Below, piece by piece: positions 16,392 through 21,302 of a stretch of DNA of 60,188 bases; within the stretch, counting starts at the first letter, position 1; every line of letters begins with the position of its first letter. Source of the stretch: Chloroflexota bacterium (GTDB lineage: Bacteria; Chloroflexota; Limnocylindria; P2-11E). The position numbers and the translations under genes were made by a program. The stretch is from the NCBI GenBank assembly GCA_005880575.1, contig VBIZ01000109.1, positions 1-60,188 of the forward strand, written 5' to 3'. The notes under the pieces were generated by a model. The model was not told where the DNA came from. It was given only the letters and a program-made list of their open reading frames with translations, and ran no database searches.

Positions 16392-16783
16392 TGCCGGACC
16401 AGCAGACCTGCGGCAAAGGCCTATCGCAGAACGCGGCGCTAGCCGCAAAGCTCGCTCTGGTCACCGACGCCGTCGGCGACAACCACGCGGAGCACCTGAC
16501 CGCGCTCGATGAGCACGATCCGGCGGCGCGACGGGAGCGTGACGCGTACACGGCGCTTCTGACGAAGCATCGAGTCGCCGCGCAGCAGCTTCGGGAGATC
16601 GCTGACGACATGGCGGGATATCGCGATATGCCCATGGCGCCGCATGACCCCGTGGTCATGCGCGATCCGAAGCTTCGCCGCGCGTTCGAGCAACTTGTCG
16701 CGCGTGAGAAAGAGCTGCGCGCGTACCTGGACGAGCGGATCGAACGCGAAGAGGGGATGCTCGCTGCGGCGAGACGCGGCTAG
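16391..16783 (+). CDS. Hypothetical helical protein (about 130 aa)
   Basis: The ATG overlaps the purH TGA (TGATG). High GC3. No family recognised. Confidence 0.5.
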   Translation: MPDQQTCGKGLSQNAALAAKLALVTDAVGDNHAEHLTALDEHDPAARRERDAYTALLTKHRVAAQQLREIADDMAGYRDMPMAPHDPVVMRDPKLRRAFEQLVAREKELRAYLDERIEREEGMLAAARRG

Positions 16784-17550
16784 GCGAGCGCGCGTTCGAG
16801 CTCGCCTCGGTTCTCGTCGATGTATCCGAGGTCCTTCACGAACATCTGGCGTGGCGTGTCCCAGCCAACGAGCCGCACCATCCCGGGATCGCCGAGCTTC
16901 GCCTGCTCGTCGATGAATCGCCCGACGTGCACCAGCCGCGCACGGAGCGCGGGGATGAGCGCTGCGCGATCTTCGAGCCCGTAGGCGTCGGCGAAGAGCC
17001 CGAGACGCCGAGCGCGCTCGCGGCTATCTGGTATCGCGCTGGCCCCTGCGATGAGCGGCACCCAGCAGTACGCGGCATTCGCGACGTCCCACATACGCGG
17101 ACCCGGCCCGGCGAGATCCCAGTCGAGCGTGAGCGCGAACCGGCCGTCGCGAAACAACGCGTTCCACGGCGACCAATCGTTGTGGAGGATGAGCTCGTGC
17201 GGCCCCGGACTCACGAGCCGCCACACAAGCTCGGGAGACGGACGGAAGCGGGCGACGATGTCGTGGTAGCGGCGCAGCAGACGTGCGGCTTCGATCATGT
17301 GGCCTTCATCGAACACCGAATCGGGGAGCGGGATCGGGTTGCCCGCGTGGGCCTCGCCCTCGATGTAGTCGAGGACCTCGCGCCCTTCCTCGTCCATCCC
17401 GCGAGCGCGTGGCGCCGGAAACCCTTCCGCCTCGAGGAAGCGCAGCAACGTATGGACGGCTGGCGTCCACGGCCCCGCGCGACGACGCACCGTGTCCCCG
17501 ACACGGACGGCATCGTTGAGATTGCCGCCGAGCGGTAGTTCCTCCGCCAT
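16780..17550 (-). CDS. APH/choline-kinase-fold phosphotransferase, tandem paralog 2
   Basis: Brenner-type catalytic motif LILHNDWSPWNALF followed by LDWDLAG. The N-terminus is similar to the upstream paralog. Confidence 0.8.
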   Translation of the reverse strand: MAEELPLGGNLNDAVRVGDTVRRRAGPWTPAVHTLLRFLEAEGFPAPRARGMDEEGREVLDYIEGEAHAGNPIPLPDSVFDEGHMIEAARLLRRYHDIVARFRPSPELVWRLVSPGPHELILHNDWSPWNALFRDGRFALTLDWDLAGPGPRMWDVANAAYCWVPLIAGASAIPDSRERARRLGLFADAYGLEDRAALIPALRARLVHVGRFIDEQAKLGDPGMVRLVGWDTPRQMFVKDLGYIDENRGELERALA

Positions 17551-17595
17551 CGTGGGAAGAGACTAGGCGCGCTCGAAGTGGTGGAACCTCTCCCG

Positions 17596-18370: not shown

Positions 18371-19069
18371 TCAGGCGAGCTCGATGTAGCGGAATGCCTC
18401 CGCGGCTCCGAGGTTCCAAGTCGAACCGGTGGTCTTCGCCCACCACCGCATGCGCTCGGCGAAGCCCTTGCGCCCGCCCACCTGGCTCTTGTGCGCTCGG
18501 AGAGCCGCGATCTTGCCGTCGATCGATCCCGAGATGTCGAACCAGATGTTCGGGTCCCGCGTCCCGAAGAGCAGGACGCGCGAAACGCGGTGAAGCTTCA
18601 GCCCGCCGGTGAGCTGCTCGGGAAAGAAGAGGTGGTCGCGCGCCGCGATCACGCCGTCGAGCCCGCTCCATCCGGCGACGCGATGGTCGGGGTGCATCTG
18701 GAAGTGGGCCCAGGGGTCGTTCGTGAACACCACGTCGGGCTTGTCCTCGCGGATGGCCAGGCACACCTCGGCGCGAAGCTCCATCGTTCGCTCGAGCTCG
18801 CCGTCCTGGTGCCCGAGGAAGACGAAATCTTTCACGCCGATCGCCTCGCCGGCGGCGCGCTGCTCGCGCTGCCGTGTCTCGGCCATCTGCTCCGGGGTCA
18901 CCTTCGGGTCGTGCGTGCCCTTCTGCCCGCTCGTGATGACGCAGTACGTCACGTGCGTCCCGGCCGTCTTGATCCACGATGCGAGGGTCCCCGAGCAGCC
19001 GAAGTCGACGTCGTCGGGGTGAGCGAATACCGCCATCGCGCGTTTCGGGATCGTGAAGCGATCGGCCAC
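18371..19069 (-). CDS. PIG-L/LmbE-family N-acetylglucosaminyl deacetylase (MshB/BshB-like)
   Basis: Motif AVFAHPDDVDFG (AHPDD). GTG 19069 overlaps the upstream TAG (TAGTG). An alternative start is the ATG giving MAVFAHPDD. Confidence 0.8.
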   Translation of the reverse strand: MADRFTIPKRAMAVFAHPDDVDFGCSGTLASWIKTAGTHVTYCVITSGQKGTHDPKVTPEQMAETRQREQRAAGEAIGVKDFVFLGHQDGELERTMELRAEVCLAIREDKPDVVFTNDPWAHFQMHPDHRVAGWSGLDGVIAARDHLFFPEQLTGGLKLHRVSRVLLFGTRDPNIWFDISGSIDGKIAALRAHKSQVGGRKGFAERMRWWAKTTGSTWNLGAAEAFRYIELA

Positions 19070-20331
19070 TAGACCTTCAGCTTTCGCTCGTCGAGCACAC
19101 GGTCGTACAGATCGACGATGCGGTCGCCGACCCGCCGCCACGTGAAGTGCTCCGCGCGGTCGCGCGCGCCGTGCGCGAGGTGCATGCGGAGGCGAGCGTC
19201 GGTCAGGACCTCGGCCATCGCGTCGGCCAGCGCCTCGTCGTCACCTGCCGGCACGAGAAGTCCCGACTGCCCGTTCTCGATGACTGTCTGCAGTCCACCC
19301 ACCCGTGTTCCGACGACGGGCGTGCCGCACGCCATCGCTTCGAGCGCGACCAGGCCGAACGATTCGGTGAGCGACGGCACGGCGCAGAGATCGGCGGCCG
19401 CGTAATACAGAGCAAGGTCCTCCTGGTCCCGTGAGCCGACGAAGGAGACGTTCGCCTCGAGACGGTGCTCGTGCACGAGGCGGCGAAGCTCGATGATCTT
19501 CTCGGTCTCCGGCGCGTCGTCGCCTCGGTCGAGGGCCCCGCCGACCACCAGGAGGCAGACGTCGCTCCGCATCTCCGGGCGGCGCTGAAAGAGCAGACCG
19601 AGCGCGCGCAGGAGCACGTCGATCCCCTTGATCTGCTCGATCCGCCCTACGAACAGGATGAGCCGCTCGCATTGATCGCGCCCGAGCTTTTCACGTGCAT
19701 CGACCTGCCGGACCGGATGGAAGAGCGTCGGATCCACCCCGCAGGGAATCACCGCGACGCGCGATGCGTCGGCGCGATAGAGGCGGCGCAGCTCGCCGAG
19801 CTCGATCTCGCTCGCCGCGACGACGGCCGCCGACTTTTTGACGGCGTCGCGTTCGATCTCGATTCGGATGTCGCTCTCGCCGTCGATGTCCTCGTCCATG
19901 ACCTCCCGCTTGACGAGCCCGAGGGTGTGGAACATCTGGATGACCGGTACGTTCCACCTCTGCTCGAGCGTCCGGGCGACCTTTGCCGAGAGCCAGTAGT
20001 GCGCGTGGACGAGGTCGTACGTCTTTCCCTCCGACGCCGCGTGCTCGAGGAGCTTGCTCGTGAATTCGTCGAGGTGTCCGTACACCTCCATCTTTGGCCA
20101 GTACCCGAGCGGGCCTGATTGGATGTGGATCACGCGGGCGTTCGGACCGAGCTGCTGGATCTGCGGATCGTCCTTCTCGCGCCACCGCGTAAATACGTCG
20201 ACCTCGATGCCACGGGCGCCGAGATCGCGCGCGAGCTCGCGGACGTATACGTTCATGCCACCGGAGTCACGGCCGCCGAGCTTCGCGAGGGGGCAGGCGT
20301 GGACCGAGACCATGGCGATCCGGCGCGTCAC
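19069..20331 (-). CDS. GT4-family retaining glycosyltransferase, MshA-like
   Basis: N-terminus MVSVHACPLAKLGGRDSGGMNVYVRELA resembles the MshA signature. C-terminal motif ESFGLVALEAMACGTPVV. Confidence 0.85.
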   Translation of the reverse strand: MTRRIAMVSVHACPLAKLGGRDSGGMNVYVRELARDLGARGIEVDVFTRWREKDDPQIQQLGPNARVIHIQSGPLGYWPKMEVYGHLDEFTSKLLEHAASEGKTYDLVHAHYWLSAKVARTLEQRWNVPVIQMFHTLGLVKREVMDEDIDGESDIRIEIERDAVKKSAAVVAASEIELGELRRLYRADASRVAVIPCGVDPTLFHPVRQVDAREKLGRDQCERLILFVGRIEQIKGIDVLLRALGLLFQRRPEMRSDVCLLVVGGALDRGDDAPETEKIIELRRLVHEHRLEANVSFVGSRDQEDLALYYAAADLCAVPSLTESFGLVALEAMACGTPVVGTRVGGLQTVIENGQSGLLVPAGDDEALADAMAEVLTDARLRMHLAHGARDRAEHFTWRRVGDRIVDLYDRVLDERKLKV

Positions 20332-21302
20332 GGCCGGGATGCCTCGAGCCGGAGCAGCCAGTGATCTGTCCCTCCGAGGTCGTACTTGTACGGCTCGTCG
20401 CCGCGCAGAAAGTCGTAGGTGCGCAGCCCTTCAGCGATCGCCGCGCGGATCGCATACGCGGCGCACGCGATGCCGACCGAGAGCGAGGCGAGGTTCGGGT
20501 CGTACGCCGCGTTGTAGAGCGCGAGCGTCCCTTCGTACGCGAGCCCGAACAGGACCGCCGCATCCTCGCCGTCGACGTTGAGCACGCCCATTCGCAGCCA
20601 GCCGCGTGCCGCCAGCGTGTCGGCCACATCGCGGAAGAAGCGCTCGGTCTCGCCGGTCATGAACTCGGCTTTGTCGCCGCGCGACCTGTTGTGCAGCGCG
20701 ACGAACCGGTCCATCACCGCGCCGCGCTCGGCCTCCTCGGCGAAACGGAACGCGACCCGGCGGCCTGTCTCAAGCCGGCGGAGCTTTCTGCGGAGCTCGT
20801 GGCGCTCCTTCTTTCCAAGGCCCTGCACGTAATCGTCGAAGCTGTGGGCGAGCTCCATTCGCGGTGCGGTCACGAGCCGCTCGACGCTGACCTCGTAGCC
20901 CGCGGACTCGAGGACCGGCGCCATCGCGTCCACGGTCGCGCCCTCCTCGGGCACGAACTCGAAACGGACGCGATTCGTGCGCTCGGCAGCGATCCATTCC
21001 GCGACCGCACCCGCGACGGTCCGCACGTCCTCCGGCGCCGCGACAATGTCCTGGTAGTCGGTGAGCTCGCCGCCGGCGAACGAGATCGTCCCGTCCGTAT
21101 CTCGGGCGAGTGCGGCGATACCGCGATCGCCGACCCCGAGCGTGATCTGCCGGCGCCGATCGTACCTACGCGCGACGCGAATCCAGTCAGGGGTGAGAAA
21201 GACCGTCGGGTAGGCGCGACGCCGCGCAAGCTCGGACCATTCGGCCTCGAGCGATGCCGGATCGCGCGCGATACAGACCGCGTCCGACGTACTGAGGATC
21301 AT
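20328..21302 (-). CDS. GNAT-superfamily acyltransferase, CelD/FemAB-like (Acetyltransf_6 type)
   Basis: The C-terminus ...LYNAAYDP..SVG......I..A...G...YDFLRGDEPYKYDLG is typical of CelD/BioF2-like GNATs. 4-nt overlap with the GT4 gene. Confidence 0.65.
   Translation of the reverse strand: MILSTSDAVCIARDPASLEAEWSELARRRAYPTVFLTPDWIRVARRYDRRRQITLGVGDRGIAALARDTDGTISFAGGELTDYQDIVAAPEDVRTVAGAVAEWIAAERTNRVRFEFVPEEGATVDAMAPVLESAGYEVSVERLVTAPRMELAHSFDDYVQGLGKKERHELRRKLRRLETGRRVAFRFAEEAERGAVMDRFVALHNRSRGDKAEFMTGETERFFRDVADTLAARGWLRMGVLNVDGEDAAVLFGLAYEGTLALYNAAYDPNLASLSVGIACAAYAIRAAIAEGLRTYDFLRGDEPYKYDLGGTDHWLLRLEASRP

Follow-up and report, generated by a model that had tools for sequence, protein, structure and literature searches.

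Mycothiol is produced in Actinomycetota by Ino1, MshA, the MshA2 phosphatase, MshB, MshC, and MshD, and its synthesis follows a glycosylate, deacetylate, and re-acylate logic. Chloroflexota are among the most abundant bacteria of soil, groundwater, and the deep ocean, and include organohalide respirers that are used in bioremediation. To our knowledge, no low-molecular-weight thiol is known for this phylum; a literature search returned no paper naming a major protective small thiol of Chloroflexota and none linking Chloroflexi or Dehalococcoides to mycothiol-type genes. Aminoacyl-tRNA-dependent transferases form another described class, whose hallmarks are a double fold of the GCN5-related N-acetyltransferase (GNAT) type, a helix in domain 2 that carries positive charge and binds tRNA, and one essential lysine preceded by phenylalanine (F304-K305 in FemX_Wv and F328-K329 in DhpH); Orf11 moves glycine from Gly-tRNA onto the amine of streptothrisamine (PMC12945691). 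Here we describe a gene cluster of a Limnocylindria bacterium in which features of both systems appear to be combined. The stretch of DNA analyzed, hereafter the window, comprises 60,188 nucleotides (GenBank assembly GCA_005880575.1, contig VBIZ01000109.1, positions 1 to 60,188; contig C153 in our numbering) and belongs to a metagenome-assembled genome (MAG) of 2.7 Mb with 80.5% completeness and 4% contamination, and its nearest database proteins carry the label Candidatus Limnocylindria (Chloroflexota).

The locus is a deeply conserved, uncharacterised trio of genes with family-restricted kinase add-ons and not one five-gene unit. We propose that the trio makes an N-aminoacyl glucosaminyl conjugate of a phospho-polyol and that the kinases are family-specific additions, a reading to which we assign a probability of roughly 50%. 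All five open reading frames (ORFs) are co-directional, at the same coordinates as in an earlier prediction made from the sequence of the window (hereafter the original prediction):

20328..21302, minus strand: Fem-type double-GNAT transferase, 324 amino acids (PF13480, Acetyltransf_6), proposed to aminoacylate a glucosamine amine

19069..20331, minus strand: MshA-like retaining glycosyltransferase of family 4 (GT4), 420 amino acids (top model TIGR03449), a proposed UDP-N-acetylglucosamine (UDP-GlcNAc):phospho-polyol GlcNAc transferase

18371..19069, minus strand: PIG-L/LmbE zinc deacetylase, 232 amino acids (PF02585), proposed to remove the N-acetyl group from a GlcNAc conjugate

17596..18360, minus strand: kinase 1 (K1), with a minimal aminoglycoside phosphotransferase (APH)/choline-kinase fold, 254 amino acids (PF01636)

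16780..17550, minus strand: kinase 2 (K2), a paralogue of K1, 256 amino acids (PF01636)

The stop of the GNAT gene and the start of the GT4 gene overlap by 4 nt (GTGA), and the GT4 stop and PIG-L start overlap by 1 nt (TAGTG), which presupposes that PIG-L starts at 19069 and not at the longer-ORF start at 19141. The PIG-L stop is separated by 10 nt from the ATG of kinase 1, whose stop lies 45 nt before the ATG of kinase 2. These spacings are exactly those on which the original prediction had based its claim of tight linkage, and its family calls (GNAT, GT4, PIG-L, and two APH-fold kinases) are upheld by Pfam and NCBIfam.

Conservation of the trio was examined in a phylum sample of approximately 300 Chloroflexota genomes, where the five proteins were run by tblastn against 29 loci, and in an independent scan of 80 loci with one genome per species. 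The phylum-wide counts of GNAT, GT4, cysteinyl-tRNA synthetase (CysRS), and Ino1 include the unpublished genomes G227, G145, G038, G272, and G173, one of the 29 loci (L018) is from G227, and the kinase and genus MshC-like counts include the unpublished G311; no conclusion rests on unpublished genomes alone. In the phylum sample, the gene after the GNAT gene is GT4 in 25 of the 29 loci (30%–47% identity) and PIG-L, directly adjoining, in the remaining four; the kinases were found at none of the 29. GNAT and GT4 genes are adjacent and co-directional in 78 of the 80 loci of the independent scan, and thus the linkage of the first three genes is not due to chance; PIG-L lies within 6 kb downstream in about half of these loci. 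Carriers of the pair include Dehalococcoidia, SAR202, Thermoflexus, and Chloroflexia, along with a few MAGs labelled Thermodesulfobacteriota, Tectomicrobia/Entotheonellaceae, and Nitrospinota. Within Limnocylindria the order is fixed as glpX, glycerate kinase, GNAT-GT4-PIG-L, zero, one, or two kinases, and purH. The five-gene operon of the original prediction therefore stands for the trio but not for the kinases, which vary from zero to two copies and occur in the family of the window only. Likewise, the possibility it had raised of fortuitous neighbors that are not syntenic in relatives does not apply to the trio, whereas the linkage of the kinases is seen only within the genus of the window.

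The transferase had been predicted to be of the CelD/Fem type and not MshD, and this assignment is borne out. PF13480 matches with 118.8 bits, FemAB_like (PF04339) reaches 16.8 bits, below its cut-off of 27, and Pfam FemAB (PF02388) gives no match. Sequence and profile searches against the PDB returned nothing usable, and only fold comparison was informative. An AlphaFold2 model of the protein (predicted local distance difference test, pLDDT, 94; predicted template modelling score, pTM, 0.90) was compared by Foldseek and VIA-align, and aminoacyl-tRNA-dependent enzymes rank first: Sbb17 (Z 22.3) and Sba18 (Z 21.6), complexed with the amino sugar streptothrisamine, FemX (Z 22.0), FemA (Z 21.6), FemX_Wv (Z 20.1), and MprF and other aminoacyl-phosphatidylglycerol synthases (Z 18.3–19.6), with root-mean-square deviations (rmsd) of 3.2–3.7 over 260–290 residues. 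Tandem GNATs that depend on coenzyme A (CoA) follow at Z 13–16 and rmsd 4.7–6.7, among them glucosamine N-acetyltransferase (Z 15.9) and MshD (Z 14.9 and 13.9). In an alignment of 24 GNAT sequences reaching down to 31% identity, a basic helix at residues 164–178 (R167, H168, E169, R172, K173, and R175) is invariant, as are E303 and K306 with Y305 near the C-terminus. The modelled fold is thus clearly nearer to the aminoacyl-tRNA-dependent Fem/MprF/Sbb17 class than to CoA-dependent GNATs, and the comparison suggests that the acyl donor is most likely an aminoacyl-tRNA. The original prediction had treated the enzyme as an acyl-CoA acyltransferase, and because its fold lies nearer to the tRNA-dependent class, the predicted chemistry changes. 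A literature search found no paper describing PF13480 biochemistry.

The GT4 protein matches the MshA model TIGR03449 over its full length with 366.7 bits, short of the equivalog cut-off of 462.5; the next model reaches 154.8 bits and the BshA model 130.7 bits (cut-off 273.7). This placement, which rests on curated hidden Markov model scores, agrees with the MshA-like GT4 of the original prediction by a lead of more than 200 bits. Two proteins tie at 268 bits as nearest PDB relatives, CgMshA of Corynebacterium (3c48) and sucrose-phosphate synthase of Thermosynechococcus (6kih), and both use phosphorylated acceptors. The residues aligned with CgMshA K78, Y110, T134, and R154, which are reported to be ligands of the acceptor phosphate, are all four identical in the GT4. 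Among 72 GNAT-linked orthologues, Y112, H135, T136, and R156 (CgMshA Y110, H133, T134, and R154) and the EX7E glutamates E323 and E331 are invariant, and the residue equivalent to K78 is kept in 72%. Since the MshA-type acceptor residues are also kept in 6kih, they indicate a phospho-acceptor and not inositol specifically. From sequence comparison, a phosphorylated polyol appears the most likely acceptor, with inositol phosphate the most likely identity. An Ino1 gene is present in the genome (PF01658, 130.9 bits, contig C187).

As a side observation, Ino1 occurs in 275 of 301 Chloroflexota genomes, including Dehalococcoidia-like ones of 1.4–1.9 Mb, which suggests that Chloroflexota generally require inositol. 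The Ino1 gene on C187 (L064, L003) lies approximately 3 kb from another GT4 gene, whose product scores 110 bits to MshA and may serve a separate inositol-glycoside or phosphatidylinositol mannoside-like function.

The deacetylase matches PF02585 with 97.5 bits (gathering threshold 28.2) and carries an AHPDD motif at residues 16–20. Its scores to the pathway-specific models are all below cut-off: 91.3 bits for BshB1 (cut-off 182.5), 84.3 bits for BshB2, and 29.8 bits for MshB (TIGR03445, cut-off 224). The nearest PDB sequence is archaeal diacetylchitobiose deacetylase (130 bits), with BshB-like proteins more distant. The original prediction had likened GT4 plus PIG-L to the initial half of the mycothiol or bacillithiol pathway, a resemblance that persists with MshA and BshB1 as top models below their cut-offs. 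Tandem PIG-L paralogues follow the GNAT-GT4 pair in several Dehalococcoidia-type loci (L054, L113, L117, and L135) and recall the MshB/Mca or BshB1/BshB2 pairs of thiol pathways.

We infer the following scheme, including its donor, acceptor, order of steps, tRNA dependence, amino acid, and kinase role. The GT4 would move a sugar, argued to be GlcNAc because a deacetylase lies downstream, from UDP-GlcNAc to a phosphorylated acceptor, most likely 1L-myo-inositol-1-phosphate, which could be made via Ino1. PIG-L would then remove the N-acetyl group and expose the sugar amine. The Fem-type double-GNAT would re-acylate this amine, and its donor is most likely an aminoacyl-tRNA that supplies an aminoacyl group, as it is for Orf11, Sbb17, and Sba18 acting on streptothrisamine. 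The product would be an aminoacyl-glucosamine (GlcN)-inositol resembling mycothiol, with cysteine as the leading guess for the residue; a mycothiol-like thiol is the leading candidate. In the genus, where an MshC-like ligase is also encoded, it is possible that the two enzymes add successive residues or are redundant. The kinases, inserted between the deacetylase gene and purH in family f1 only, may phosphorylate a precursor or the product, or may be resistance-type enzymes that share the transcript. The trio has no match to a curated pathway, and none of the five proteins reaches an NCBIfam curated equivalog cut-off. The original prediction of an N-acylated, possibly phosphorylated glucosamine conjugate outside any nameable pathway is consistent with this result, except for the phosphorylated final product, which is not supported; the phosphate most likely resides on the GT4 acceptor.

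The distribution of cysteine ligases bears on the choice of cysteine. The original prediction stated that none was present; this is correct for the window but not for the genome, which holds three CysRS-like genes. The one on contig C98 (L009:1441-2607, minus strand) encodes 388 amino acids without an anticodon-binding domain and scores about equally to CysS (334 bits) and to MshC (TIGR03447, 324 bits), below the MshC cut-off of 485. Of the 17 genus members, 13 have conserved this MshC-like gene. No linkage of it to the cluster or to a GT4 was found in the source genome and five others, and its neighbors, which include an M42 peptidase, are uninformative. The other two genes encode full-length CysRS proteins (contigs C110 and C12; L010 and L011; 408 and 373 bits to TIGR00435); they represent either genuine paralogues or a remnant of the 4% contamination. 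A genome search suggested with the original prediction thus recovered an MshC-like protein below cut-off and neither BshC, with no match in the 80.5% complete genome, nor MshD, for which the genome's best score is 33.8 bits (TIGR03448, cut-off 163) and a 323-amino-acid tandem GNAT on contig C93 reaches 25 bits.

Of the 301 genomes in the phylum sample, 204 encode a GT4 orthologue (E <=1e-65) and 108 encode the GNAT. The families in which the pair is linked (f20, f27, f36, f22, f6, and f51) have a single, full-length CysRS only, and GT4-positive families without the GNAT (f14, f24, f31, f23, f18, f9, f8, f16, and f7) encode an extra MshC-like protein of approximately 390–430 amino acids. GT4, GNAT, and MshC-like protein are all lacking in families f21 and f13. 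When individual genomes were inspected, all five GNAT-less genomes with an MshC-like protein of approximately 400 amino acids had a GT4 orthologue (305–360 bits), and five complete genomes with neither partner (f21, f13, and f37) had none, their generic hits reaching at most 100 bits. This pattern fits two alternative partners, the Fem-type GNAT and the MshC-like protein, for one MshA-like enzyme, and therefore fits cysteine as the transferred residue; it consists of family-level patterns and three five-genome checks among related, non-independent genomes, with CysS-like copy number as an imperfect proxy for MshC-like proteins. MshC-like forms of approximately 390–430 amino acids, at 44%–50% identity, are widely distributed among the Chloroflexota families without the Fem-type GNAT.

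The surroundings of the pair in distant loci provide further context. Clustering of all ORFs from 63 such loci revealed no additional universal neighbor of GNAT-GT4. Recurring genes upstream are thrC, hom, and folE, and in Dehalococcoidia the pair is flanked by thrC, hom, folE, and the serine hydroxymethyltransferase (SHMT) gene. A DUF502 membrane protein follows GT4 in 20 of the 63 loci, a double GNAT resembling MshD (TIGR03448, 70–112 bits) adjoins the pair in 18, and a CpsB-type PHP (polymerase and histidinol phosphatase) phosphatase lies nearby in nine, where it could perform the sugar-phosphate phosphatase step that is otherwise missing. Since an MshD-like GNAT stands beside the pair in those 18 loci, the Fem-type enzyme there would occupy the position of the ligase and not that of MshD. 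Coordinates of extra neighbors are L095:8206-9153 (minus strand), L096:8958-9866 (minus strand), L107:9422-10201 (plus strand), and L096:8222-8950 (plus strand).

A bolder form of our proposal holds that the Fem-type GNAT uses Cys-tRNA on GlcN-inositol as a tRNA-dependent, non-orthologous replacement of MshC or BshC, and that the trio is the core of redox-thiol synthesis in Chloroflexota (Dehalococcoidia, SAR202, and Limnocylindria), with the compound elaborated further in Limnocylindria. Such elaboration would be a second residue, a phosphate from the linked kinases, or both. We regard this extension as tentative and rather unlikely. A serious rival for the source genome, which we nevertheless consider unlikely, is a classical mycothiol-like route in which GT4 serves as MshA and PIG-L as MshB, the C98 protein adds cysteine with ATP, and the GNAT caps the product as an MshD analogue that uses acyl-CoA. 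The genus-wide conservation of the C98 protein lacking an anticodon-binding domain fits this route, as does the GNAT, which shares the two-domain architecture and length of MshD and matches it structurally (Z 13.9–14.9) in a genome where no true MshD was found; one PF13480 member is also named an acyl-CoA (crotonyl) transferase by NCBIfam. However, by Z score the GNAT fold stands 5–8 units nearer to the tRNA-dependent enzymes than to MshD, many lineages keep GNAT-GT4-PIG-L without any MshC-like gene, and the MshC-like gene is unlinked to the cluster. Moreover, where the MshD-like double GNAT stands beside the Fem-type one, the two are not equivalents.

The order of GT4, PIG-L, and acyltransferase is also that of glycosylphosphatidylinositol (GPI) and teicoplanin-type logic, with PIG-A as the GPI counterpart of GT4, and the trio could accordingly make an envelope building block, such as a glycolipid or glycan primer of the N-acylated glucosaminyl-(phosphatidyl)inositol type. 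The DUF502 membrane protein is in keeping with this, but we judge it improbable: the closest relatives of the GT4 are MshA and sucrose-phosphate synthase, which act on soluble acceptors, no recurring gene for a flippase, polyprenyl-phosphate transferase, lipid synthase, or other envelope function stands beside the pair, and the flanking genes belong to central metabolism both here (purH, glycerate kinase, and glpX) and in Dehalococcoidia. GT4 and PIG-L enzymes also start the assembly of 2-deoxystreptamine aminoglycosides, and the top fold match of the transferase belongs to a pathway of the streptothricin type. These facts, together with fusions of the kinase family to a class A beta-lactamase and an aminoglycoside-type GNAT and its look-alike named for trifolitoxin immunity, would suit a secondary-metabolite and resistance island that makes a paromamine-like pseudodisaccharide, with the APH-fold kinases conferring self-resistance. 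We rejected this very improbable explanation on context and conservation, as the locus has no cyclitol synthase, aminotransferase, exporter, or regulator, the GC content is flat, the trio, unlike an island of biosynthetic genes, has been conserved vertically at a single housekeeping site throughout the class and beyond it, and the kinases are missing in most trio carriers.

Several observations weigh against our own proposal. The GT4, PIG-L, and MshC-like protein all fall under the curated mycothiol and bacillithiol cut-offs. Ino1 is so common in the phylum that its presence is non-discriminating, and it never lies within 6 kb of the GNAT-GT4 pair in 100 loci. K306 was matched to FemX Lys305 at the level of sequence features, and PF13480 includes BspF, the named crotonyl transferase, so the fold does not fix the donor. 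The GNAT homologue and GT4 are unlinked in families f10 and f34, and family f2 has two full-length CysRS-like genes without a GT4. Furthermore, the Fem-type and MshC-like genes coexist in the 13 of 17 genus genomes, and the replacement argument is therefore inapplicable to the source genome itself. As for the kinases, five close relatives have none in an otherwise identical locus, and paralogues with 50%–53% identity lie at other sites in related genomes, without the trio.

The two kinases were correctly recognized in the original prediction as paralogues of the APH/choline-kinase fold. K1 and K2 are 61% identical and match PF01636 with 45.9 and 44.2 bits (gathering threshold 23.2); H123, D125, N130, and D143 show no variation and D145 almost none, leaving the HxDxxxxN and DxD motifs intact. 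The model of kinase 1 (pLDDT 94.6) matches homoserine kinase II (Z 18.9), NahK (Z 18.2), the amicoumacin kinase AmiN (Z 17.4), and LicA (Z 17.0) about equally. The original prediction had named NahK and AmgK as examples of the fold, and NahK is among these tied matches; since the top matches are tied, the substrate cannot be read from them. NCBIfam provides no curated family match beyond the catalytic loop. Kinase homologues (E <1e-10) are present in 18 of 24 genomes of family f1, to which the window belongs, and in none of 16 other genomes of the class. In every genus locus examined a kinase gene comes next after PIG-L, and its position does not change among the 17 kinase-bearing loci; the other species of the genus have either the K1-type or the K2-type gene, both being present in the source genome alone. 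The kinases, with 58%–87% identity, diverge much faster than GT4 and PIG-L in the same genomes (75%–93%). We conclude that they are predicted to be competent small-molecule kinases, are recent and dispensable relative to the trio, and are probably co-transcribed with it.

Action on a pathway intermediate and an unrelated, resistance-type passenger role are about equally probable for these kinases. As passengers, they would be detoxification or immunity kinases for an external compound that landed in the gap between PIG-L and purH and are read through from the trio promoter, an explanation that we place just short of even odds. Copy numbers of zero to two at the site among close relatives, the paralogues in other contexts, the rapid divergence, and fusion partners that resemble resistance enzymes all argue for it, and the nearest named Atlas cluster, which bears the automatic name 'putative trifolitoxin immunity protein', points likewise. 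Against it, the kinases' distance of 10 nt from PIG-L and their unchanging position hint that they are expressed together with the trio, and anomeric sugar kinases of the NahK type are among the tied best fold matches. The wider kinase family, of approximately 255 amino acids, comprises 3,976 representatives at E <1e-3, whose fusion partners in other organisms include domains of histidine phosphatase, NUDIX, GNAT (Acetyltransf_8/_1), and class A beta-lactamase (P0282, P0264, P0335, P0365, P0242, P0364, P0368, and P0268).

The cluster is flanked in the window by convergent purH and a divergent glycerate kinase-glpX pair, and the wider surroundings are otherwise of a housekeeping nature (polX and folD), with helix-turn-helix (HTH)-tetratricopeptide repeat (TPR) regulators as well. 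The GC content is 0.65–0.70 throughout the region. Upstream of the trio lies one further feature:

21303..21360, no strand assigned: divergent intergenic region of 58 nt separating the GNAT and glycerate kinase genes, a presumed promoter region of the cluster by position only

A promoter and terminator scan of the locus yielded nothing above shuffled sequences, and no sigma-70 consensus was found in the 58-nt region. Within the 388 nt that separate purH from kinase 2 lies an open frame of approximately 112 amino acids (16445-16783, plus strand) whose sequence looks helical; this frame runs convergently to kinase 2, shares 4 nt with the stop of that gene, and has no Pfam match. A defense-system reading was rejected, as the five proteins gave zero matches to PADLOC anti-phage models despite a generic similarity to PF20706 (GT4-conflict).

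The trio represents a compact, conserved, and directly testable candidate pathway of three soluble enzymes, whose substrates can be bought or are simple to prepare. If the Fem-type enzyme is tRNA-dependent, tRNA-dependent aminoacylation of an amino sugar would be a reaction of core metabolism in a major phylum, beyond streptothricin-type antibiotics, and cofactors of the mycothiol and bacillithiol type would have a second way of ligating cysteine. Should another residue be transferred, the product would still represent a new and widespread class of metabolite. The kinases, in turn, show how a lineage-specific accessory gene can be grafted onto a conserved operon.

The known systems resemble the locus to different degrees. 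Unlike 2-deoxystreptamine clusters, it has neither a cyclitol synthase nor aminotransferases and is flanked by purH, polX, glycerate kinase, glpX, folD, and HTH-TPR genes. The kinases share fold (Z 17–19) and intact HxDxxxxN and DxD motifs with homoserine kinase II, NahK, AmiN, and LicA, but are approximately 60–100 residues shorter. As in bacillithiol synthesis, where bshB1 and bshA are adjacent, the GT4 and PIG-L genes adjoin, BshB1 is the best NCBIfam model of the deacetylase, and the third enzyme, as proposed here, adds an amino acid to GlcN; however, the GT4 scores just 130.7 bits to BshA, BshC was not found in the genome, and the acceptor site is of the phosphate-binding MshA/sucrose-phosphate synthase type and not of the malate-binding type. 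The likeness to mycothiol synthesis extends to a GT4 nearest to MshA with the phospho-acceptor residues, a PIG-L deacetylase, Ino1, and an MshC-like truncated CysRS in the genome. It is limited by scores below cut-off for all components, a deacetylase nearer to BshB and archaeal Dac than to MshB, the lack of an MshD, and a linked Fem-type PF13480 fold that points to aminoacyl-tRNA and not to ATP or acetyl-CoA chemistry; mycothiol producers also have scattered genes, whereas the three genes are translationally coupled here. From the Fem and Sbb17 enzymes, the transferase differs in its sequence (10%–16% identity), in its Pfam family (Acetyltransf_6, not FemAB), and in its location at a housekeeping locus instead of an antibiotic cluster or a cell-wall locus. 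Nevertheless, it has in common with Orf11/Sbb17/Sba18, FemX/FemA, and MprF the double GNAT fold (best matches Z 21.6–22.3 over approximately 270 residues), its basic helix and its aromatic-lysine pair near the C-terminus resemble features of that class at the sequence level, and its proposed substrate, as for Orf11/Sbb17/Sba18, is a free amine on an amino sugar.

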